64,000 nt of DNA from Paecilomyces variotii. Taxonomy: Eukaryota. The position numbers and the translations under genes are program-made. A model generated the notes under the pieces. The model was given only the letters and a program-made list of their open reading frames with translations. It made no database searches and was not told the DNA's origin. The stretch is taken from the NCBI GenBank assembly GCA_004022145.1, contig RCNU01000001.1; one strand, given 5' to 3'. Below, in pieces: positions 12,167 through 32,556 of this stretch (position 1 is the stretch's first letter; each line of letters begins with the position of its first letter).

Positions 12167-13539
12167 ATGGTTCAGACACGCAGGAGCTCTAGAAAGGTCA
12201 CAAAGGATAAGGGTGAACAAGAGAATACAGCCCATGACAAAGAAGCTCATGAGCAGGATAGGAATGGGTCATCTGCAGCGTCTGCGCATCCCAGCACTCC
12301 TGATGCTGGGGTTTCTGCCACTGGCAATGACTCTACCGCAGCTATGTCGAAGCAAGGAGCTCTTAAGAGCCCTCAGAAGAAGATCAAGTGGAGAGGTGCG
12401 CCGAACGATGATGACTTGACTGCATACCATCCGGAGCAAGTTGACTGGAGCATCGACAATCTGCCAGAGATCATTTATGTCTTGAGGCCCACGGCTAAGC
12501 ACGCCAAGTCAAGGGCCGAAGTCACCAAGACGACATATGAGATTTTCGGGCAGGTCGTGAACGACTTCCCAGTGCTACCCCGTCAGATCTCTTCAAGAGT
12601 GGAAGGATGGAGATGCGAGGCCTGGTCTCGCATGGATCGTCGCATCACGCCGGAAGATATCGTGGCGCGCGTCAATCCTAAATATCAAGTGACTGCCTCT
12701 GATATCGAGATGCGCCGATACCGTTTCAGGCAGGGATTCAAACTGGGTGCTTGGGGTTCTGGATCATCCATCGCTGCTGCCGCACGTATTCTCCAGAAAC
12801 ACGGAATTGATCCTAAGCTGAATAGCACGAGGGGATCAACTCCCGGCCTTATCAGACCTGAGCTCGGAGAAGCGGGTGGACGTATCCCGTTAGCCAATCC
12901 TTTCCCCAACTATGATACAGTGAACCCCCGTCGTTCCAGACAGCGTTTCCCTCTGGGCTATCTTCCTACCCCTAGCCCGGCGCCAAATGAACCAATTGCA
13001 CCGCCTATCAAGCCGAAAGAAGAGGACGAAACTGCTCATAGTACGAAGGCAGAGAGCGAAAAGGATGTGGTCTTCGATTCGAAGAGGTAAATCTCTGAGA
13101 TGATCACCTGTTGTGATATTGAGACTAAACATCTTTCAGCAGCGAATCTACTCCGCCCTCCTTGACCAAAGAAAGCCTGTCCCCTGTCCAGGAGATCTAT
13201 AACAACTTCCCATCGTATCCGGATCCTGAGGAGTATGAGCTTGCCCATCATCGTGGGCCTCCTGCACGTGCCTTCCAGAAAGAGACAGAGGAAAAGCACA
13301 TGACCATGACCTTGGAGGAATACTTGCAGCACAACAATCTCACCTACGAACAATACCTGGAACGGGAGAATGAGCCTCGTGCTCGGAAGAGGCGTAGTCC
13401 GATGCTGTCAAATGGTGACGTTTGCATGTCCCTTAGTAAACGTCTCCGCCACTCTATTGAGGGGCCCCTGAAGAGCTCTGACTCCGAAATGGACGAGACT
13501 GCGAGTGAGATCCTTGGTAAATTCAAAAGCGATCCTTGA
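12167..13539 (+). CDS. Uncharacterised protein, paralogue A of the three-gene cluster (2 exons, 439 aa)
   Basis: Exons 12167-13086 and 13140-13539 join in frame across GTAAAT...CTAAAC...TTTCAG. The core domain DWSIDNLPEIIY...DFPVLPRQISSRVEGWRCEAWSRMDRRITPEDIVARV is shared with the next two genes. A basic, NLS-like RKRRSP lies near the C-terminus. Confidence 0.8.
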
Positions 13540-14276
13540 ATAGGAAATGAATAATGGACGGTGGCTGGGTGAGCAAAGATGTTGAACAAAGAAACAGGGT
13601 GTGGGTCGAGATCTGAATGGAGAGTGGCAATGGCAGGTCAATAACAATAGGATTTTAATGTAGCATGTTGCGAGTTTCTAGGTAGTCAAAATTAACGCCG
13701 CTCACCACTTGAACGCAGGCCATCTTTTCATCCGTAGAGCAGGGTATATAGAAGATAAAGTCTGTATATGCTCCAGAATATCGTCAAAAATACTTCTAGA
13801 TTGTTCTTCGTATAGTATATACCTATAACCAATTGTTATGTACTTACCTAAGTCGTCGAGTCGAGGTTTTTGTATCGTTTCTGTTCTAGCGCAGTGGCAG
13901 CCAGAGCAAAATAACAAGTCTAGGAGCGCACTCTCCGTTAACCTATGTTCAACGTTATCATAGCCAGCCTTCCTATAAAAAAGCCTCAAAGAGAAGTGAA
14001 TAGACTGCCCTACCAGCCACAGGTTTTATAGATCTTTCCTTAGGAGAAGGTAAAATGGATCTTTCTCCTAGACTTCTTCTCCTAGACTTCTTCTCCTGCA
14101 ATTGCAGAGCGTACCTTCTCCTGAACATCAAGATCACCATCCTACATCGTTTTTGAAGAAGAAATAGCTGTTCACTGCGTTGTTGAGCTTCGACTTCAGA
14201 TCCCGTTCCATATCCGAGTCAAACTTGTACAATTCTCTTTGGAAAGCGTTCCTATCGACATCAGAAAGGAGTCAAT

Positions 14277-15862
14277 ATGCTTCTGAACGAACCATTTGAC
14301 TTCAATATGGAACTTGCCATGGGAAATGCCGGCAACGGAGCGACGTCTCCTATCTCTTCTCTCCGTAAGCTGATATATCCTGACGGTGCAGAGGTATAGG
14401 GCTAATTGTATGACAGAGTCTTTTGACGCTCATACTGGCATTGCTATGAACAATGGGGGCAGCGACCTTTTCTCTTCTGACCCTACTCTCCGTAAGTTGA
14501 TATACCTCCAGTGACGCACGTATAAAGGGCTAATTATATGGCAGACCCTTTCAACACCAACTTTAACTTTGCGTTGAGCAATGTCGGCAACGGACCTTCT
14601 TCTGCTGGTCCTGTTATGCGTAAGTCGATATATCCCAACGATGTAGACACATCGAGCTAATTGAAGAACAGAATCCTTCAAAACCAACTTTGATATTGTC
14701 ATGAGCGATGTCGGAAAAGGGCCTTTGTCCGCTCCTGCTGCCATGCGTAAGTTAATATGTGGATTCATTAAACATCTGGAGATATTGGGCTAACTTAGTG
14801 CCTTTGATAGAGTCCTTCCATTGCAACCTGAATATTGCTGCGAGAAATGTCGGCAACAGAATGCTTTCTCCCAACCCTACTCTGCGTGAGTTAATATATC
14901 TCAACAATACAGTTATATAGGGCTAACTGTACTTCTCCTGACAGAGTCTTTCAACAACATCAACACAGACATTGCTATTGGCAATGCCGGAAACGAAACA
15001 AACTCGTCTATTCCTCCTCGGCGTAAGTTCGTATATCTCAAGGATAATATACAGGGCTAACTGTACGGCAACAGAGGCGAAAGCCCCTCGACAGCACAGC
15101 GTCAAGGCCGTCCATGATCCTCGCAACGTCACTGAGTTCCGTCAGGACCAGGCAGATTGGTCTTGGGAGAATCTCCCAGACATTCTCTATACTTTCAAAC
15201 CCCCAAGAGCTCCAAGACAGCCAGAACCGGCGACAATGTCATACCAGATCCATGGCCAGTTCCTTCGTCACCTCCCCATCCTTCCGGACTGTATCTCATC
15301 CGACGTCGAAGAATTCCGCGTTGAAGCCTGGATGCGTCTCGATAGGCGTGTCCGTCTCGTCGATATCACTCAGCGTATGCACCCCGAGTTTCGAATCAAA
15401 CCAAACGCTCTTCAGCAGCGTGGTGTCCGGTTCCGAAAGGCATTCAACATGCTGGCATGGGGATCCGGAAACAAGAAGACGCTGGAAACCGAGGCCGAAT
15501 TGGTCAATAAGATGCGCAGCTGTGGAATCGACCCCGGCGTCAATTCCACTCGTGGAATGACGCCGGGGTTGATCCGTCCTGAACTGGGTGAGACCGGGGG
15601 TAGGATTGCTCTCCCCGAGCAATACAGCAGACGGTCTTTGGCTCCGGCCAGACCTGTGCCCGTTGTTGGTACAGATGCCGGGGACGGTAATGGGGGGGTC
15701 GTCAGCCTCTTCGAAGAGGCCATCGCGGCCTGCCTTTGGAAGGCCGTCGATAGGGAGGCGGCGACCCCTCCAACCGCCTTCGACCTCGGCATCGAGGCAT
15801 ATCTTGCCCACGACAAGATAATGAGGGCGATGGGGGCGGGGATGGGAGATGGAGTTTTTTAA
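14277..15862 (+). CDS. Uncharacterised protein, paralogue B, with an N-terminal array of repeated mini-exons (7 exons, 417 aa)
   Basis: Exons are 14277-14364, 14417-14491, 14545-14619, 14672-14746, 14811-14885, 14945-15022 and 15075-15862. All introns are GT..AG with GCTAA branch sites and all are phase 1. The splice product is one open frame that joins the ORF-track frame at AKAPRQHSV. Core domain: DWSWENLPDILY...LPILPDCISSDVEEFRVEAWMRLDRRVRLVDITQRM. Confidence 0.8.
14286..15074 (+). repeat. Diverged tandem array of six exon+intron units (period about 127-139 bp)
   Basis: Recurrent unit: AG|AGTCYTTCAA...ATTGC...AATGTCGGCAACGG...CCT...C|GTAAGTTRATATATC...GGGCTAAYTGTA...ACAG. Donors at 14365, 14492, 14620, 14747, 14886 and 15023. 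Acceptors end at 14416, 14544, 14671, 14810, 14944 and 15074. Confidence 0.9.
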
Positions 15863-15931
15863 TTTTTTTTCTTTTTCTTTTTTCTTTCTTCCTTTCTTTT
15901 TCTTTTTCTTTTTTTTAAAAAAAAAAAAAAA
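15856..15931 (+). repeat. Pyrimidine (T/C) tract directly followed by a poly-A run
   Basis: About 55 nt of almost pure T/C runs after the paralogue B stop, then about 15 A. Confidence 0.8.
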
Positions 15932-20400: not shown

Positions 20401-22051
20401 CTAGATAAGTATCACGCTGTCAAGTGAGGAAAACCCAGCAGCAACGCCGCCCTCGTTGCTTTCTTTGCCCTTTGTCCTCATTAGCCACCCTCCCTGTTCA
20501 TTGTGGATGATGTCTCCATTATCCTTCCACAATATAGTTCCAAAGACGCCTAGCTCTCCGATGACGTGTCCGCTTAGGACTTGGCCGTCACTTCGGAGAA
20601 CTACGTTCTTCGCTGTGGGAGGAGGCTGAATCATTTCCATCAGAACCCACCGCTTCCAATCAGTCTCCGGGATGGAACGGAGAAATTCAGGAATATCAGC
20701 CTTGTATATGTTATTGCCGCCACCCTCTCGTTGTGGTTTGAGAACGTGTTTCACAGCCGTCTCCGGGTTCAGTGCCAGTTCCCTTCCGCGGCCATTGGCA
20801 GAAAGATCGTACTGGGGAGCGAAGGTTCCCCGCAGATTTGAGATCATGCTAGGCTCTGTGCGTGGAAGAAAGCGGGAGAGATTGTCTGGCCCTGAGGGTT
20901 CAGCAAGGACCTGTTGGATCTTCTTACAGCCTGCCAACTGGTTGAGGACGGTAGGGCACTTGATCGCTGCGGATCGCTCCAACTGAAGTCTGGCATCCCA
21001 GTCACGTTCTGATTTATAGTCGGATGGGGTATAGAAGCTGCGGAGGTAAACCGTTGTAACTTCGAAGGGTGTAGACGGAGAGAACGGGGGTGTGTAAAGA
21101 AGGGGCCTGGACGGATTTGAGCTTGGTATGGACGTCTGGTTTAATATTTCCGAAGTCACTAGACGGAAAACAGGAATCTTATGGAATCTTGTGAGCTGTG
21201 ACGAGAGGGCCAGTTGATCGAAGAGATTTCGTTCGCCATCCTGAACGACGAAGAGCACACACAATGGAAGTGATGGTGTGGACTTGGATGGCCCGTAGGC
21301 TTCATGTGCTGCGGCTAGGCCGGCGGCGAGCGTGGGTACCGCCGTATTCTCCGGAGGCAATCGTCCATCCAGCAAAGGATGCTGAGGATAGCTTATTGGC
21401 TGACCTGGTGGAAACGAAAGGAGTTCTGTATGCATGGCTGTCACAAGGGATGACAGACCACCGAACGAGGAGGAGATGGTGTTGAACTCCACTTGTTTTA
21501 TCGAAGGTGCTGTCGCGTTAGGAGGGACATGTACCATGTAGTCCGACCGGTAAAGCCCCAGAGAAAGAGGCTGGACATAACCCTCCTTCTGTACAGCAAG
21601 GTGGACTTTCCACAGGCTCGAGATGAAGTCATCTACGTCGATAAGTCTACAACCGGGAGGATTTAGCAAGACGATATTTCCTCCAGCAAGGTAAGTGAGA
21701 CACAGTGGAACAAGTTCCCCGTAATGGAGAGACCAGATAGGCGACTCACTCTTCCATAACCTTCTCGAGCCATGCTGTATCGCAGGTGATGTTCGCATAC
21801 AGTTCGTTGTAGGCTTTCTGAAGGGCTGTCGCTTCTTCGAAACATGACTTGGGGAAAAGACTGGGGAACAATGTCACCGGTGCATTGGTTGCCAAGACGC
21901 CTTTCTCATCTGCACCTGCCGGTAGAGAAGCAGGTGAAGGCCTGACAGTGAGGCCATTGTGAATCGTCCAGTCCTTCACCGTCGTCACCAGGAACTGTTC
22001 CTGCGCGGGGTCCAGAGGGGGAGGGTAACTGGAGTAAATTGACTGGTCCAT
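20401..22051 (-). CDS. GSH2: Glutathione synthetase (eukaryotic type), 2 exons
   Basis: Motifs APVTLFPS, LGLYRSDYM, KQVEFNTISSSF, VLKPQREGGGNN, GELGVFG and RTK...EGGVAAGF. Intron at about 21647-21749. Confidence 0.95.
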
Positions 22052-22696
22052 TGATACGATATAAATGCCAGATCTGTGCCGGGTTTTAGTACAGGACTAC
22101 TCCCACGTCCTGACAGCAACTAGAATGAGCGAACAACCTCGTCAGATGTAGCAGAAGAAGAAAAAAAAGGATCATTGAGACGCCATCGAGCCCCTCCACG
22201 GCGCGATTCCTAAGCACACGAGGCGGGGATTTCTCTCCGGGCTCCCCGCGATAACCTCACCGCCCGGCAAAAAAACCGCGTGGGCTTTCTTTATCTCCTG
22301 GCGATCTTGGCCTGCTTTGACGTTCCCGGCTACAAACAGCGTCTAAACGTTGTCTAGGTAGCGTTGTTTTTTATCCTTTCAGTTACTCTCTATCTGGTTA
22401 TTTGTGTTTCTTGCGTCATCTTCAGCTGGCTGGGCAGACTGCATATTCAGATATCGTCATATTCGAAAGTCCTCCAGTTGTCGCGCCGCAACGCAAAGCT
22501 CTAGCTTTACAGGTCGCGTGCCGCTCCACAATATCGACATAGACAGCGACACTAGAATGGTCTGCGTTAAAAAGGCAATCGCCTCAGCTACGGTTTCTTT
22601 GTTTCTGGTGTCTAGGAAGCCGCAGTACGTTCTGTTTAGTCTTGTTCTTGACAATCTCTGGTCCCTCACCTAGCCGCTCCCGCAAGACCAAGAGAT

Positions 22697-25600
22697 ATGT
22701 CCTCGGACGACGGGGACCCTCTCGACTGGACGGTAGATCAGGTAGTCAATTGCCTATGTTACAGCTCCTCTACACCATGGTGCCAATCATTATCGAGTGC
22801 ACCCCGTCCAGATCCGGCTACGTTCGAGGCCGCTCTCAGGGAGAACTTAATTAATGGCGAGACTTTGTTGAATGATGTGGACAAGGATGCTCTACGCCAG
22901 GATCTGGGCCTTAGGGCTCTTGGGCACCGCAGTTTTGTTCTTGCTGCAATACGTTATCTGAGACAAGCCTCTCTCAAATATCGACGTGCCAATGCTCTGC
23001 CGAATTCTCTGCTTGATGACCGCTCGCAGGCAGCTTCTCCAAGCTACTTCCCTTCGACCGCTTCGTTTTCCGCTACAGGTTCTCCTGGCACCCTTGCCTA
23101 CTCACCGCGTTCTCTAGCGGATCTAGCACCACCTCAGCAGCTGGCGCAGTCTGCATTCTCCAATAGTCTCGGGTTTTATACGCGGCCTACCGACGTGGCA
23201 GCTAGCGCTGGCTGCCATATCGCCAGAAAGCCCCCAATCCCGAGCACAAATATTGCTACTATAAAAACACCAACGAGGCTTCAGAGGGAAGTGAGTGGTA
23301 GTGACGGTCCTGGTGAAGCGAGTCAACAACAGGAACGTGCTATTTCACAACAAGCTGATACCCGCGATGGTATCTTCAAGACGTCTAGCCTGCGCCCTCA
23401 AGAGCAATATGTCGTTGGCAGTGATGGAAAGAAACGCAGGCGACTTGATCTTCGGTCGAAGCCTGAAACAGCGGCGAGTGGCATGGCGATCGGGACCTCC
23501 AACTCGCTATACCGGAAGAAGCCCGCCAGCTGGTATATGGGTCCGAACAGAATCACCGCCGATGAACTTTTCTATCCAATCCTTCCAAACGAAGACAATG
23601 GCGACGGTTCTTTTACCATTTTGAGCCCCGGGTTTCCACGCGGTCATCAACTCTTTGTAAAGCACTGTCTTCATCATTATTATCGACAACGACCAGTACG
23701 TCTAAGTGGCGAAAAGGGATACAAAAGATGGGCCGTTGTCCCATATGAGAAGCCCAGAACGCAGGGCGATCCGTACCATTTCACTCTATATTCCTTTCGA
23801 AACGGAAGGGTAACTATGACCCAAGAGGAAGTGGCACGGTGGCCCGAGCTCAATACCAAAAACGAGACGGGACTTGACGACTCAGCACCAGCCTTCAAGT
23901 CTCGGGATCCGTTTGAATATCTCCTCCAAAAGTACCCCGCCAAGGAGGACGACGAAGATGCTCATCCTCTCTATGGTGAATCGGGTTCGGAAGGCGAATA
24001 CGACGACGATACATGGCGTGAGATGCAGGAAGATGAGCGAACGCCATCTACTGCCAAAGAGAAGTTCCTAAGCGCCCAGGAAATCGACTTGGTTATGGAG
24101 CAATGTGTGAAGGAGTATGAGGATAAATGGAGGAATGACCACCTGCCAAGAGAGGAAGCGAAGGCACGCAGGATCTGGATCTTGGCGAGGAAATATAGGA
24201 ACAGAAATCAACAGACGAAGGCGCTGTTTCTTGATATTGGTCTACTGGAACATCGTTTGACGAAGATACAGAAAAATATCCGTCTCAATGAATACACCAA
24301 AGTCGAGGATCTCAAATCACAGTGTCAAAGCATGGAGCAAACAGTCTTCAGCATCCAGGCACAAAAGTGGCGTATCTCCGTCCTTGGACAAGAGGCCTGT
24401 CCTCCGCGGGTTTCTATTATACCACCAAAACCAAAGCGAGTGGCACGGCATCAGTCTGACCTTGATGAAGAATCGCTGGGCTCTGAGTCTGACGAAATAT
24501 ACGACGATGACCTGGATGAATTTATCGATAATGATCTTGCCAGTGTCGACCAGTACAAAGCAGATGAGTCAATGCCGATAGGTGGCTTTTCAAAGCCGAA
24601 TAGGACTCCGTTCTCTTCTCATGCGCAGTTCGACTCTTCTTCTTCTGACAGTGAATTCGACGCAATCAGCCCCTCGGGGGAGAAAATAAAGGTCTTTTCT
24701 GAACGACGTCGCGGTGTGGCAATGAAAATGCAAACAGAAAACAAGGCCACTCTTCCATCACGGCCTCCTCCACCGAGAGATCAAGAAATCCAATGGATCG
24801 ATCTCACACAAGATTCTCCACCTCCGGGTGTCGATAATTTCGACATCACTACACCTCCTCTGAACCCTCTGCGCTCTTCTCCTAACGAGATGACTGGGAT
24901 TCTTCTAAAGAATGAACACCATTCTCGGTCCCCCACGCCCTTGCATCTGGAGGAAGCCGACAACCCCGGAACATCGCCACGGTCCTCGAGGAAAGACAAA
25001 TACGGCAGCGATATTACACTTCCCGGCGTCCTTGATTTCAAGGGTCTCCAGCGGGTTGATTATAGTGTGCTTGAGGACCTGCATGACCGTGAAAGGCTAC
25101 TTTCTAAGCTCTTGGCAAGTTTGCCAGATGAAGAACGAAACCAGGTGGTAGATTATGTGCTATCTTGTCGTACATCGAGCCTTCGTAAGAGGGTAGTCGA
25201 AGCTCTTAGGCTGTGGCTTCGACATGGCCGGATGATCCGGGACTTAGACGAAGTTGAGAATGGGGTTATAATGCGAACAACATCTTTGTATGTCTCGTGG
25301 ACTCGCTGCGTGGCGGCTACCCAGGAGGGAATACCGAGGAGACATATCAGGAATGCTATCAAGCAAGCAAGTAAATTCCCAGAGTTTGCCAGAGAACTGA
25401 CTACGCGTCTCGAAGTGCTGGCAAAATACTATGGTCAGACAGGTGGGACTGAACCCCGCCAGAGAAGTACCTCAGCAATTGCCGGTTCCGAACAAGCTGT
25501 TCGAGGTCCCGACGTCGATATACAGCAAGCTTCGTTTCTTACTCCTCATAAAAAACGCAAGAGGGAAGTTAAAGAGAGGCAGGAGGTGAAGCAGAATCAT

Positions 25601-28256
25601 GCAAGTGCACAGCTCCGAGCAGCAATTCAGGAAGAACAACGTAAACGCCTCGAACAAAAGATGGAAAGCGTTGGTGTCGGTAACGATGATCCTTCTCGTC
25701 AGGCTGTGACATTCGAGACACCAATCATATACCTCGACCCTCATATCGGTCGTCGAGTCAAGCCACATCAACTGAGAGGTGTGCAGTTCATGTGGCGTGA
25801 GTTAATCCAGGATGAGAAACGCCAAGGATGTCTCCTTGCCCATACTATGGGCCTGGGGAAGACGATGCAAGTGTAGGTGCCTGCCTTCATTATCTCCGAA
25901 GAAAGTGCAAGACTGACGTTTGATCAGGATATCCTTTCTAGTCACGATATCTGCTGCTGCTTCTTCGAACAACCCTGGCATTAGAGCACAGGTACCGGCC
26001 TGTTTCCATAGGTCGCAGACGTTGATTCTGTGTCCTTCTTCCTTGATAGACAATTGGTATGAGGAGTTTCTCATGTGGACGCCACGAACAAACTACCTGG
26101 GACCTCTTCGAAAGATCACCAGTGCGAGCGCATTCGGCGAGCGAATACGGGAACTCTCTGCCTGGGACGAGGAAGGTGGCGTGTTGATCATGAGTTACGA
26201 CATATTTCGCACCTGGGTTCACAATAAGGAAACCAAAACTCGCGGCCGACCTTTGGAGTTTGAGGATCACGTGCGGATCAGGGAGCAACTCCTTGACGGC
26301 CCGAACATCATTGTGGCGGACGAAGCCCATAAAATGAAAAATAGGACCGCTGGCATTTCCGCTGCCGCAAGTGAATTCCGATCTAAAAGTCGTATTGCCC
26401 TGACAGGTTCTCCGCTCGCTAATAATCTTGTTGACTACTACGCTATGGTTGACTGGATCGCGCCGGGGTACTTGGGAAATTTCGTGGAGTTCAAGGCCAA
26501 TTATGTGGAACCTATTGAGGAAGGCCTCTACGCGGACAGCACCTATTCTGAAAGACGAAAGTCTCTCAAGAAGTTACAAGTGCTGAAGGAAAACTTAGGT
26601 CCTAAGATAGACCGTGCTGATATATCAGTGTTGGAAGGCAGCCTTCCTCCAAAGGTGGAATTCGTCATTACAGTGCCATTGACTGACCTGCAGAAAGAAG
26701 CGTACGACATGTACGTCAATTCAATTCAGGCGGGTAGATCCGAAGTTGGGACTGCCAGATTATGGTCTTGGCTGGCAATATTATCACTGTGCTGCAATCA
26801 CCCAGCCTGCTTCAATGACAAACTTCTCACTCAGTCGGATCGTCCACGAAAGCAAGGTAGAAAATCAGACGACTTCGATTCAGAAGAGCTACCGGGTGAC
26901 GAATCGCCAATCCAGGCGGGGTTGTCAGAGACGATGATTGCTTCTCAGAGAGAGCTGTTTGCTAAAGTCGATAATCTCAGAGCTCCTGGGCTCTCTTACC
27001 GTGCCGAGATACTAGATCAAATTATTCGCGAATCCGTCAGAGCCGGTGATAAAGTTCTAGTGTTCTCTCATAGTCTGCCAACTCTCGATTACATCGAGCA
27101 CATGTTAAGGCAATCCGAGAGAAGATATCTCCGCCTTGATGGCCATACCCCAATCTTCAGCAGGCAGGCCGCCACTAAGAACTTCAATCAAAGTGGTTCC
27201 GATCAGCAAGTCTATTTGATTTCCACCAGAGCTGGTGGCCTGGGTCTCAACATCCCCGGTGCGAATCGGGTTGTCATATTCGATTTCTCATTCAGTCCTA
27301 CCTGGGAGGAGCAGGCTGTCGGCCGAGCATATCGGCTTGGACAACAGAAGCCTGTCTACGTCTATCGCTTTATCGCCGGAGGCACTTTCGAAGAAGTCAT
27401 GTATAATAAAGCTGTCTTTAAGACACAGCTTTCGTTCCGCGTTGTCGACAAGAGAAATCCAATTCGTTGGGCTTCCAAGTCGGCTAAAGAGTACCTCTTC
27501 GCTTCCAAGCCAGTCAAAACTGAGGACGTCTCTGGATATATCGGGAAGGATCCTGAAGTGTTGGACAGGATAATCCAACGAGATAACCATAAAATGATAA
27601 GGAAGATCGAGCTCACAGAGACTTTCCAGCGAGAGGATAACGATAAGCTGACCGAAGAAGAGAAGAGAGATGTCAGAGAGGAGTTGGACGATGAGATTCT
27701 CAAGAGGAATAACCCGGAGGCGTATTATCAGAAGCTGAGGGAAAGACAGGCAGCTGAAGCAGCGTTGAGACCTCCAGCCTCAACATGGGGAGGGCCTTCT
27801 TCTTACACAGCTCCTGCATTTGGCCAAACGCAGAGCTTTGTCGCTCATGCACCTCTCACCCAAAATGATACCGCTCACTGCCCTCCTCCCCTAGAACCAG
27901 ATATGAGCCTTCTTCGCAGCCAGCCAGCTCCAGTGCCTGGCACTTCTACAGCGAAGCTTTTGAATCCTCTAGCGCATACCAACTTGCCTCAAGGACACAG
28001 TCCCGCCACTCTCGAGCTGGGCGCTTCTGGGGCAGCCCCTATGTCACACGATGATACAGTTCGGCGATCTACTCAGGCACACCACGTAGCAACAGCTACG
28101 CAAAATGAACCTGAAAGCAATGGGATTTTCCAAAACCATGTCCCTTCTACTGCCACAGTAGAGTCAGATCGGACCGCAAACAACGCGGAGTCTTCGAAGG
28201 CTTCTAGTACTGCATCCTCTGGCTATGCAAGTCGGATAAACTGTAAGCAACAATGA
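22697..28256 (+). CDS. Large SNF2-family ATPase of the ATRX/ARIP4 type (possible Neurospora SAD-6 orthologue) with an N-terminal SAM-like domain; 2 exons, 1834 aa
   Basis: SNF2 motifs KPHQLRGVQFMW, GCLLAHTMGLGKT (the AH-MGLGKT variant typical of ATRX/ARIP4), DEAH, LTGSPLANN, LISTRAGGLGLN and QAVGRAYRLGQ. Intron 25873-25927. The N-terminal WTVDQVV...LRENLINGETLL...DLGLRALGHR resembles a SAM domain. Confidence 0.85.
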
Positions 28257-29606
28257 CTCCTGTATTCGGGCAGATTTTCTTCTTGTTCATAGACTTTTTT
28301 TTCTTTCTTTCTTCATTGACCATATAGATACAGCTAGAGATCCTTTGGCGCACATGATACCCAGTGGAACTTTGTGATACCCAGGAAGTCCGATATTCTT
28401 TTTTTTAACAAGAAACCTTACTAAATTTACCTAATGCACTATTCCATTTCGCCCAGTGGCGTCATTTCACTTGAGAAATACTATTTCATGCGGCATAAGC
28501 ACGTTAGTTTGGACACATTGACTTGATGATCCAACCAAGTACTGCCTTGCCGACTCAACTAATTCAACAATTGCAGTCCCTCAATAGACTGCGAAATATC
28601 CTTTGCAACCCCTCAAGCTACGCGGTTCTTGATCTATTTTGCGGATGGGCTTTTCCTTGCATGTTCATTTTGTTCGCTTCTTTTCCAGCAGCTCTGAAAA
28701 TCAAGGCATTGCACACGCTTTCCCCCCCTTTTTTCCTCAAAATATCTCTCAGATACTTAGTTTGTCTCACCACCAGCCGGTCCACGCATCTAATATCTGT
28801 TCTCCGGGCATACTTATCTTCAAAACACCTTTGATTTTAATCTGCATATCTAATAATGAGAAAAAAAAAATACCAGCAGCCAAAATGGAAGCGCTTGGCG
28901 CAATCGGGATGGCGGATGGCGTTCATCAATAATGAGATCATGGAAAATGATGATATGATGACTCTCCTTATGGTTCTTTATCTTGGCTCTACCCGACATA
29001 ATGTGAAGGACGAAGCGGGGAGTTTATTCTCGGTTTATGCCCTCGAAAGCTTTCTATTCTTATGTGTATTTTTCTTTCGGAAGCTTTGTCTTTCTCCTCG
29101 TGCGTGTGTGTGTAATAATTCAATTATGTGGTTGGAAAAAAAAAAAACCATGTTTGCTAATTACAGTGAGATCTTAGATGCTATTTATGTAAGAGATACT
29201 TCCCTCTCCAGTTCCGAGCCCATGGTGACGATGCGTCATCGGTTATTATTACTGTTGCCTCGCTAGTAAAGTGCGCCATGGGGTAAAATATACAACTACG
29301 AAAAGGAACATTGAAAAGAAATATTCATACAGTGAACTATCGAAATATGTAGCCGAAAAGTAATAGGATATCCTCCGCGAAGCAATGGAATCGGTATCAA
29401 TATACATAGTACACGGATATCAAAGTTAAATCGACTAATTTGATTTAGCCAGATAGAAATTAGAAGCCGGTAGGAGAGCAATCGAAACATATGTGACAGG
29501 TGAAAATATTGTGTTTTGTGCAGATGTAGAATCATGGACAACGAAAAGGAATAGCTGTACAGCAGAAATGACCGTCTTGAGTGTTGCCAGGATACAATAT
29601 CCCTCC

Positions 29607-32556
29607 TCAACCGATGAGCTTTTCCAGATCGGCAAGTCTTGCGGCCTTGTCCTCGGCTTTCTTCTTCTTGCCTGTCTCGCGGAACGCAGCCATCATGAGA
29701 TTGCGCTTGGTGTCTTGGATCTCTAGGACGCGGTCTTCAATACTTCCTTCCATGACCAGCCGCCAGATAGTCGTCTCTCGCTTCTGGCCGAGTCGGTAGA
29801 CACGGTCCATAGCTTGATCTTCAATAGCGGGCGCCCACCAGCTGTCCGCAAGAATGACCTGATTTGCTGCAACAAGATTAAGACCGACGCTGCAGACATT
29901 CAGACTAGCGAGCAGGACTTTGCACTCAGGGTCATTGGAAAACTGGTGGGTGGACTTGTCACGTTTGGCAGATTGCATCTTTCCGTCTATCCGAGCGAAA
30001 GATATGCCGTTACGCTCGAGGTGAGGCTCGATGATGTCAAGAAATGAAGTCCACTGGCTGAAAACGACTGTCTTGGTGTCCGGGGCTTGGCCCTTGGCTG
30101 TGAGGATCTTGATGAGAGCTTCAATCTTGCTGCTGGGACTGTCCGGATCGACCTCGCCACTGCCCTCATCCTCTCCCAACTCCACCGCAGGGGATACAAG
30201 AGTAGATGTATCCTCGATCTCCGCACGGCACAGGGGACACTTATGTTGTTTTTCAATGACCTGCTCGATGCATGCACGGCAAAACGGGTGGGCACAGGCC
30301 GTGATAACAGGCTGCTCCAATAAATCCAAGCACACTGAGCAAACTTCTTGACTCTCAATTCTGAGTTGCAGCATGTCCTGGAGTGCTTTGATGTTTTCCG
30401 GTGTCAATTGGACAACTTTGTGCTCTTCCAGCATTGACATCAGCTTGTCAATGCGATTCTTGCACAGTGACCAATGGTTGCAGACTTGGCGCAGCCGAAG
30501 AATAACTTCGAGAAGATGGGAATACGTTGTGTTGCCGTGCTTATCCTTGGACTGATAGTCCAACATCTTGCCCTTCGCCTCGGATCTAATCTCGGTTAGT
30601 CACTGAAGAAACACAATAAGTATGAGGACTCACAGAAACATGTCGTATTTTTCCTGTTCGTGCGGATGGAACTTCACACGCAGGACGTGTGATCTCAGCG
30701 GCGGGAGACGCAGATTGATGAAGTTCATATCTTTCCTTCTCCGCAAGCAGATAGTAGCCATCAGACCCTGAAGAAGAGTGCTTGCTTCCGGATCACCGTA
30801 AGTCAAGGGTCGAATGAGGACACTATTGAACAATGCAAGATCTTCTAGGCCGCCAGAAAGTCTTAAGAAACGGATCTGAGAATAGAGATCTCTCAGAGAG
30901 TTGATAATTGGGGTTCCAGTCAACGTCCAACGGGAATCTGCCTTTAGATTGCAAGCTGCAAGGGCTGCTTTGGACCTGGGGTTACGGATTGTATGGCCCT
31001 CATCCAAAACGACTCGGCGCCAATTAGTCGCAAATAATCCCTTGGTCGGGGTGGCTTTCGAGTCCGGCTTGTACTCTTGGCTGAGCGCGCCATAGCTCGT
31101 GACAACCACGTCGTACTGGCTCAGATTGCCGGCTTCTTTCTTCCCTGGTCCATGATACCTGAGCACGCGGAGACCCCTTTCTTCAGTTGTGTGGGTTGCG
31201 ATCTGATCTATCCAATTACTCATCACTCCAACAGGCGAAATAATCAGTGTTGTCTTTGATCCAGACGTCTTCGGTTCTGAGTTGGCCAGGATCAGAGAAA
31301 TAATCTGTATAGTCTTTCCCAAACCCATGTCGTCAGCAAGAATCCCACCGCTAGCAAGAGGCGGCTCTTGTCTGGTCGAGTAATTCGTAGCAATATTGGT
31401 AAAATAGCTCCCGTTTCTCTTCCAGAGCTGGACAATAGCCTGTGAACCAGGAGCGGGCAAGACTGGAGACTCCTTTTCAATCATCCATGCCAAACCCTGA
31501 CGCTGGTAAGGGAGTAACTCCGTCGTCAAGCCTGCAGGGTTCTCAGCCATGGGCATATTTTCCAAATCCGTCTCGTCGACACCAAATTTCTCCACAACTT
31601 GGCCCATCTCTCTAGGATTGAACGTGCTACTTTGCCCGATAAGGTCTTCCAGGCTCTCCGCCTGGCCCTCTCCATCCGGAGTCGAGAGATTGGCAAACAT
31701 TGGTTGACCCTGGCTGTCCCATTGTACTCCCTTTCCTTTGGCAAGGGAGCGAGATCGTTTCTCAGCTTCCTTGCGCTCCTTTTCTCGCTGCTTCTGGAGC
31801 CTGAGCTCTTCCCGCTCACGTTTCTTTACTTGGCCCAGTGGGAGTCTATCCAGTTCCATCCGGGCCTTGAGTTCTGCCCGCCGTTGCGGATCATATGGAC
31901 CATAGAGTTTCAAGAGCACAGGGCAGTCAAAATCTCCTTTGGGTCCGCTCAGAATTCCCTCTATGAGAAGATCTCTGGAATCCTGCAATCGGTTACCAAG
32001 TGTGCTCGTCCTCTATCGGGTGATATCGAGACTTACCATATATTTCGCCAGTTTGGCTGCCGTATTACGAGGAATATGGCCAATCTGATGCCCCATGACA
32101 TTATCCACACGGATAGCATTGCGATCATAGGGGTTGCCCGGCTCTCTTTTGAGAATGACATGTTCTCCAACAGTAGCCTGCCCTCGATAGTAGCGCACGC
32201 CGACAATCTTCGTAGGGAGATTATCTGTGCGATGTCAGCGGACGACACCACTAGCCTTATCAGATATAATAAGGATTATGTGCTAGTATACCGTAAAGTT
32301 GATACTCGCTGTACGTGGCATCCTCAAAACCCTGAGAACCAGGAATCAACTCGACAGCGCCCGCATCATCATCTTCGTCCTCCAGACTCGCTTGGCTCAA
32401 CGGTAGAAAGGCGGCATTTACGCCAAAACGGCTGCCACTGCTCCAACTTTCGCGTTCCTCAAGCTCCGCTCTTGTCTTGCTGGGACGAGCAGAAGTTCCG
32501 CTGGTATCCGTGAGGTCGACGACATCGATCTTACGCTTGCCCGAAACTCTCGCCAT
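29607..32556 (-). CDS. Rad5/HLTF (SMARCA3)-like SNF2 helicase with HIRAN and RING domains, 4 exons
   Basis: HIRAN: IVGVRYY...[19 protein letters not shown]2: [27 protein letters not shown]3HC4 RING: CSVC...CAHPFCRAC...CPLC. Helicase C-terminus: [21 protein letters not shown]. Confidence 0.9.

Follow-up and report, generated by a model that had tools for sequence, protein, structure and literature searches.

Tandem exon–intron cassettes at the 5′ end of a Paecilomyces variotii gene, and a spliced antisense RNA that spans them

How does a fungal gene come to carry six introns that resemble one another, and does the array of exons between them code for protein? We asked this of a gene of Paecilomyces variotii that lies in a 64,000-nt stretch of contig RCNU01000001.1 (GenBank assembly GCA_004022145.1), referred to here as the window. 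The gene occupies positions 14277–15862 on the plus strand; its 5′ half consists of six diverged head-to-tail units of one exon and one intron apiece, and its spliced product is 417 aa long, with the stop codon at 15860–15862. We consider it likely that this is a protein-coding gene in which an ancestral unit, an exon with a phase-1 intron, was amplified to six cassettes, which encode a disordered tail in front of a conserved Eurotiomycete domain.

The anatomy of the array is regular. Exon 1 (14277–14364, 88 nt) contains the start codon and unit 1, whose homologous part is 14290–14364. It is followed by four exons of 75 nt, namely exon 2 (unit 2; 14417–14491), exon 3 (unit 3; 14545–14619), exon 4 (unit 4; 14672–14746) and exon 5 (unit 5; 14811–14885), and by the 78-nt exon 6 (unit 6; 14945–15022), the unit with the highest variation between strains. 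The array exons are symmetric in phase, and every junction is phase 1 (C|AG, C|AC or C|AA). The introns measure 52 nt (intron 1; 14365–14416), 53 nt (intron 2; 14492–14544), 52 nt (intron 3; 14620–14671), 64 nt (intron 4; 14747–14810), 59 nt (intron 5; 14886–14944) and 52 nt (intron 6; 15023–15074). Each opens with its donor (at 14365, 14492, 14620, 14747, 14886 and 15023), which reads GTAAG[T/C] in five cases and GTGAGT in intron 5, and each has a CTAA[CT] branch motif (14402, 14530, 14657, 14790, 14923 and 15057) and a YAG acceptor. Intron 4 has an alternative in-frame acceptor at 14798, which gives an intron of 52 nt and is used by one public model (P0075). The last exon (15075–15862) encodes the conserved domain of ∼190 aa, a variable tail and the stop codon. 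Left unspliced, the array has many stops in all three frames; splicing gives an open frame of 417 codons. An earlier note on this DNA, made from the letters alone, had proposed tandem exon–intron cassettes encoding a modular N-terminus. Our analysis reproduced all of its coordinates and lengths to the base, the same six peptide units and the same phase at every junction, and the proposal is borne out by the anatomy and by public strain models that share the introns.

The units are clearly related. All 15 unit pairs gave global alignment scores (2 to 39) above the best of 1500 shuffles (best score 0.0, mean −30.2), and 120 control comparisons with flanking 130-mers reached a maximum of −17. Base matches in an ungapped autocorrelation peaked at lags of 127 and 255, above every shuffle. 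Aligned to one another, the units have 38 invariant columns and a mean column identity of 71%. Tandem Repeats Finder did not report the array even at a minimum score of 30, so that the description of the array as hidden was a fair one. The motif shared by the introns is concentrated here, with six of its eight occurrences in the 64-kb window falling in the array (1.22 expected by chance). The six introns showed no unusual predicted folding or hairpins (z from −1.20 to +1.33), and a ratio of transitions to transversions of 408 to 300 between units gave no clear sign of repeat-induced point mutation. Mean identity between units is higher in introns (67%) than in exons (60%), the reverse of the usual pattern, which is probably explained by ordinary splice-signal constraint. 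Between strains, too, the introns are the more conserved part (six changes in 332 nt vs. 18 in 466 nt).

Several features suggest that the array is translated. Codon position 2 is the one that varies least from unit to unit (0.28 vs. 0.45 and 0.49 at the other two), and the pooled values are pN 0.37 and pS 0.55, with a dN/dS of 0.51. Donor, CTAAY motif and YAG acceptor are kept in all six introns despite a 55% difference at synonymous sites between units. Retention of any one intron leads to a stop at residues 41–168, whereas skipping of any internal exon keeps the frame. The first in-frame Met of the last exon comes too late to include the N-terminal part of the conserved domain. The window has an ATG at 14984 from which an unspliced open reading frame (ORF) could continue through intron 6; in strains like that of sequencing run X16, the frame that enters the last exon from unspliced DNA upstream stays open for 17 codons only and has no ATG. 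A one-base insertion in intron 6 breaks this read-through in other strains. The domain thus has no start codon of its own and, with no ATG in the X16-like read-through, obtaining one would require splicing. Because retaining any intron brings an early stop, and the domain would be left without a start, the splice signals appear to be kept by selection.

A comparison between the window and the X16 strain, in which 40 of the 44 listed differences could be classified, points the same way. Of the changes in the array, eight are synonymous and 10 non-synonymous; for the last exon the counts are 10 and one, and the array introns have six substitutions in 332 nt. There were two insertions or deletions (indels), in introns 4 and 6, each a single base that the other strain has in addition to the window sequence. 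By hand arithmetic, with about a quarter of sites taken as synonymous, the dN/dS of the array between strains is ∼0.4. This evidence is indirect, and from sequence comparison it suggests that the array is coding and under weak constraint. The purifying selection that the earlier note had read from the open frame is therefore weakly supported, with a between-unit ratio near 0.5 and a strain pattern far from that of the last exon.

The gene has already been annotated automatically in many P. variotii strains, as a hypothetical protein. All six units are present in models P0002 (417 aa) and P0077 (419 aa). Five models of 395 aa begin within unit 1, at a Met that has been created there, and a Met in unit 2 is the start of P0068 (378 aa) and P0070 (380 aa). 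The six-intron spliced product of the window ends in the exact sequence of P0068, and it follows that introns 2–6, including introns 3 and 5, are used in that model just as had been predicted; intron 2 is also used by NCBI models. Every P. variotii model that covers the array has six units (nine models with canonical units), and the only difference in exon length among strain models is one of two residues in unit 6. That unit is a hot spot of variation, with seven of the 10 non-synonymous changes relative to the X16 strain and a two-residue insertion in some models. Paecilomyces lecythidis apparently has five longer units, as parsed by eye from a predicted protein whose DNA was not seen.

Where did the unit come from? 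A metagenome locus (L001) encodes a Thermoascus-like orthologue, with 73% identity in the domain. It has a first exon of 26 codons followed by a 59-nt phase-1 intron, and its split codon lies four codons before a conserved P-R-Q-H-S, which is the place and phase of intron 6 in the window. An adjacent paralogue (12167–13539, plus strand) has the same conserved domain and no array. It shares 45% identity with our gene over 165 aa, has a different N-terminus and no intron at the position of intron 6, and contains one 53-nt intron (13087–13139), in phase 2 by hand count. Given the single intron in L001 and a paralogue without an array, the ancestral state would have been one exon plus one intron, multiplied in Paecilomyces. 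The suggestion that the array records intron gain by tandem duplication fits the single phase-1 intron that L001 has at this site. As judged from these sequences, the gain appears to be one in which an existing intron was copied along with its exon, not one in which introns were made from duplicated exonic AGGT. The array introns have little in common with the intron of L001 or that of the paralogue beyond generic signals.

L001 has an array of its own directly upstream of its start codon, four tandem units of ∼150–160 nt at positions 2180–2809 of that locus. Pairs of these units score 35–58 against a null maximum of −10 and contain no consistent ORF. Tandem Repeats Finder missed this array as well, and its ungapped autocorrelation was not significant. 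Local alignment of the L001 repeat with the window units gave scores within the null on both strands. The two genera seem to have independent repeats at the same relative place.

The array encodes a tail of ∼150 residues, rich in N, S, G and P, with six repeats of 25–26 aa that share the recurring core S-F-x2-N ... A-M-x-N-V-G-N-G ... S-x2-P-x-L. As a protein query, the array region matched only P. variotii proteins. In the predicted structure of P0077, residues 1–147 have a predicted local confidence (pLDDT) below 50 and no secondary structure, and the domain is above 90. The tail is accordingly predicted to be a disordered extension built from repeats, a prediction made from a shallow alignment.

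The domain is widespread. The best protein matches of the last exon were P. variotii strain proteins (99% and 91% identity), then P. lecythidis (74%), Thermoascus, Aspergillus and Blastomyces. The domain itself, the first ∼190 residues of that exon (15077–15661), matched 288 representative clusters at E ≤0.001, and its AlphaFold2 model, from 96 aligned sequences, had a pLDDT of 94.1 and a predicted template-modelling score (pTM) of 0.89. Searches for a known family returned nothing: no Pfam family matched the last exon or the paralogue at E ≤1, or three full-length forms at E ≤10. A sequence search of the PDB gave no match inside the domain and weak ones in the low-complexity tail only (E 0.099–0.83). 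Foldseek with the domain found nothing at E ≤0.001 (best E in the PDB 1.7), the ESM Atlas search gave no match, and a wide structural search with VIA-align gave no Z above 2.8; we do not trust its weak rows resembling a helix-turn-helix at residues 76–131. On these models and searches, the domain may have an undescribed fold. A Clr5 domain was considered and rejected; the likeness is confined to a UniRef label on some Aspergillus homologues, and no Pfam family, Clr5 among them, matched the window protein, its strain forms or 20 longer homologues, the last of which gave no Clr5 hit at E ≤0.01.

Taken as amplification of a coding cassette, the history of the locus would run as follows. The ancestral 5′ unit would have been a short first exon with a phase-1 intron, and a segment of ∼127 nt would have been duplicated in tandem to yield six cassettes. 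Each copy would have brought a complete intron (donor, branch site and acceptor) and a symmetric exon of 75 nt, and each duplication would thereby have added 25 residues in frame and one intron. The sense mRNA would lose all six introns, and the tail may act as a multivalent flexible extension, a motif carrier or a spacer. The same DNA would also be transcribed in the antisense direction, into a spliced and apparently non-coding RNA.

A number of observations weigh against this history. We examined assembled contigs from four of 24 RNA runs (X7, X16, X17 and X18) and found none of the six predicted sense junctions; contigs drop rare forms and cannot show absence. No sense-spliced transcript was recovered from them at all. 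The contigs of X16, X17 and X18 are unspliced through the introns that they cover, and the X16 library contains DNA, because a 176-kb record is found in it. X7, which matches the window strain at ≥99% and has a longest record of 15.9 kb and uneven depth, is probably RNA. Its contigs run unspliced through sense introns 1, 2, 3 and 6, and all five of its junctions (four joints and one loose end) have minus-strand polarity after allowing for ambiguous bases. The earlier note had proposed to look for the sense junctions in RNA and to count a lack of spliced reads under any condition against the introns; since contigs cannot show absence, the four runs do not amount to such a lack. Three public sequences leave out the array (P0071 and P0078, 208 aa each, and the RefSeq/JGI sequence P0072, 232 aa), and all public gene models, including those that contain it, are automatic predictions and not independent evidence. 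P0075, from strain DTO207G8, can be reconciled with the window sequence only by adding one base near the start of unit 3 (14545–14560). This implies a frameshift allele with units 1–2 out of frame, as read from a protein for which the strain DNA was not seen; the claim that no stop or frameshift occurs thus holds for the window and is qualified by this strain model. The array is under weak coding constraint (dN/dS ∼0.4–0.5), and the alignment behind the predicted disorder is shallow.

Several of these points make up the case for reading the cassettes as decaying relics or an untranslated leader, with any product starting downstream and a frame that is open by chance and by the choice of gene predictors. 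The array ratio stands against ∼0.03–0.1 in the last exon, the three short sequences omit the array, the P0075 model implies an inserted base, sense junctions are missing from the four runs and the tail is predicted to be disordered. We nevertheless hold this reading to be unlikely, although not negligible. Six full sets of splice signals and six open frames of 25 codons have outlasted 55% synonymous divergence. Indels between strains are of one base in introns and of multiples of three in exons, and the synonymous share of the array changes (eight of 18) is enriched relative to the non-coding expectation. The short models also lack the conserved N-terminal third of the domain, and the read-through above the last exon on which a downstream start would draw is not conserved.

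What, then, is the RNA that was recovered? A spliced antisense RNA spans the whole gene on the minus strand (13891–15853) and is dominant in the one informative data set. Five minus-strand introns were resolved in X7: 13920–14013 (94 nt, GT..AG, from the loose end); 14252–14317 (66 nt, GC..AG with a GCAAGT donor), which takes the sense start-codon region out of the antisense RNA; 14356–14466 (111 nt, GT..AG), which is alternative, with the unspliced form also present; 14735–14801 (67 nt, GC..AG), which overlaps sense intron 4; and 14877–14932 (56 nt, GT..AG), which overlaps sense intron 5. Depths at these junctions were 39–139, and no contig extended over 14251–14316, 14734–14800 or 14876–14931. 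Read in reverse complement, sense donors yield two antisense branch-like motifs (TTAACTTAC and TTAACTCAC), and a sense branch region yields one antisense donor. The longest spliced ORF of the antisense RNA (158 aa) has two synonymous and nine non-synonymous strain differences and a lost start codon, and we read the RNA as non-coding because this ORF is not conserved. Its 3′ ORF had no relative among proteins of 39–125 aa.

The antisense RNA also accounts for an oddity of annotation. P0072 corresponds to window positions 15114–15131 joined to 15182–15862, and the 50 nt between them (15132–15181) form a CT..AC intron in the sense model, which on the minus strand is a GT..AG intron with a CTGAC branch motif. 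It was not a joint in the four runs. The antisense RNA explains this intron as one of antisense polarity placed in a sense model. It is an artefact of the type that Frey and Pucker (2020; PMC7072748) ascribe to antisense transcripts in fungal annotation.

The overlap of the two sets of introns raises the idea that the cassettes are two-way splicing modules. The motifs of the array introns would act on both strands, duplication would have built a modular tail and a multi-intron antisense RNA together, and the antisense RNA could act against the sense mRNA by competition or silencing. We regard this as quite unlikely; if true, it would make the modules a sense/antisense switch on a gene with a confidently predicted fold that has no solved relative.

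In a further reading, the conserved intron-like sequences would function above all for the antisense RNA, and the array would be a module of a spliced antisense regulator with a secondary sense frame; this seems to us very unlikely. It would account for five X7 junctions with canonical minus-strand ends at the depths given above, for the antisense signals that mirror sense ones and for introns more conserved than exons. The antisense introns, however, touch only three of the six units, units 2, 3 and 6 being read through, and their sites fall at non-homologous positions among the units. By our estimate, ordinary sense splice signals take up about one-third of a 52-nt intron, enough for the 67% vs. 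60% identity, and it is the sense frame, not the antisense ORF, that shows codon-position structure.

The least probable of the readings we weighed is the earlier note's idea that symmetric cassettes generate isoform or allele diversity, with subsets skipped in splicing or reshuffled by unequal recombination: any internal exon can indeed be skipped in frame, P. lecythidis apparently differs in unit number and unit 6 is hypervariable with a two-residue indel polymorphism, but the unit number is constant at six in the nine P. variotii models covering the array, no joint skipping a unit was found in the four runs, and ∼60% identity between units makes a poor substrate for unequal recombination. 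In fungi generally, exon skipping is rare and intron retention predominates.

The surroundings of the gene are unremarkable. Its 5′ flank contains a perfect 14-nt tandem repeat of 2.5 copies (14063–14097), and a 60-nt T-rich tract followed by A15 lies directly past the stop codon (15855–15931); the placement of runs on the window is broken at this tract. Neighbours at 20404–30599 include a glutathione synthetase (minus strand), a DUF7607 and SNF2 helicase over two ORFs (22652–28253) and a RING-helicase (29610–30599, minus strand), and further housekeeping-type neighbours are a tRNA synthetase fragment and a bestrophin. Nothing near the array gene pointed to a secondary-metabolite cluster or a mobile element.

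The array is a real tandem array of cassettes, ordinary in kind as a case of internal gene duplication, and none of these findings overturns current views. If the favoured history of cassette amplification holds, the gene would be a clean and datable case from a filamentous fungus in which the number of introns rose from one to six by exon–intron copying and in which a repeat-built disordered tail arose as part of the same event. Genes of this sort help to distinguish copied introns from introns that are truly created de novo. The locus is also an example of annotation led astray by a spliced antisense RNA (the CT..AC intron in a RefSeq model), and it draws attention to a widespread Eurotiomycete domain (288 representative clusters) with a confident fold and no known family or structure match. 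The portions of the literature that our search covered yielded no account of this gene or of a comparable array in a fungus, and none of antisense introns that reuse the sense splice signals of a tandem array.

How does the locus compare with known systems? Animal examples of tandem exon duplication are known, and tandem exon duplication within genes, or internal gene duplication, is said to have been treated by Gao and Lynch in 2009. Our array shares with it the head-to-tail copies within a gene, the phase-symmetric exons, a product grown by repeats and an intron number that goes up with each copy. Three traits by which an internal duplication is recognized are found here: similar head-to-tail units, each an exon with a complete intron that has canonical signals, and an unduplicated relative, L001. 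It differs in that the unit is tiny (127–139 nt, an exon and a fungal intron of ∼52 nt) and six-fold, in that the product is a disordered tail and not a repeat of folded domains, and in showing no sign of mutually exclusive or cassette splicing.

In the AGGT model (PMC3443670), a duplicated exonic AGGT supplies new splice sites and duplicated exon sequence becomes intron. Both routes add an intron by tandem duplication within a gene, whereas here a complete, pre-existing intron would have been copied. We rejected the AGGT model for this array; the intron pre-exists in L001, and the boundaries here are C|GT and AG|A, not AGGT.

The introner-like elements and proliferating sister introns reported from fungi (PMC4457414, PMC8469720) are dispersed among unrelated genes, and the introns of the latter report have long terminal inverted repeats. 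The likeness lies in several mutually similar introns within one genome. Here, by contrast, the similar introns within the window occur nowhere but in the array, the exons next to them are duplicated as well and no unusual folding is predicted; by the features that could be tested in the window, the array introns do not appear to be introner-like. The antisense RNA, finally, resembles the fungal antisense transcripts and CT-AC artefacts of PMC7072748, both in the CT..AC intron of P0072 and in RNA junctions that are GT..AG or GC..AG on the opposite strand. It departs from them in antisense introns that overlap the sense introns of a tandem array and reuse the reverse complements of sense signals.

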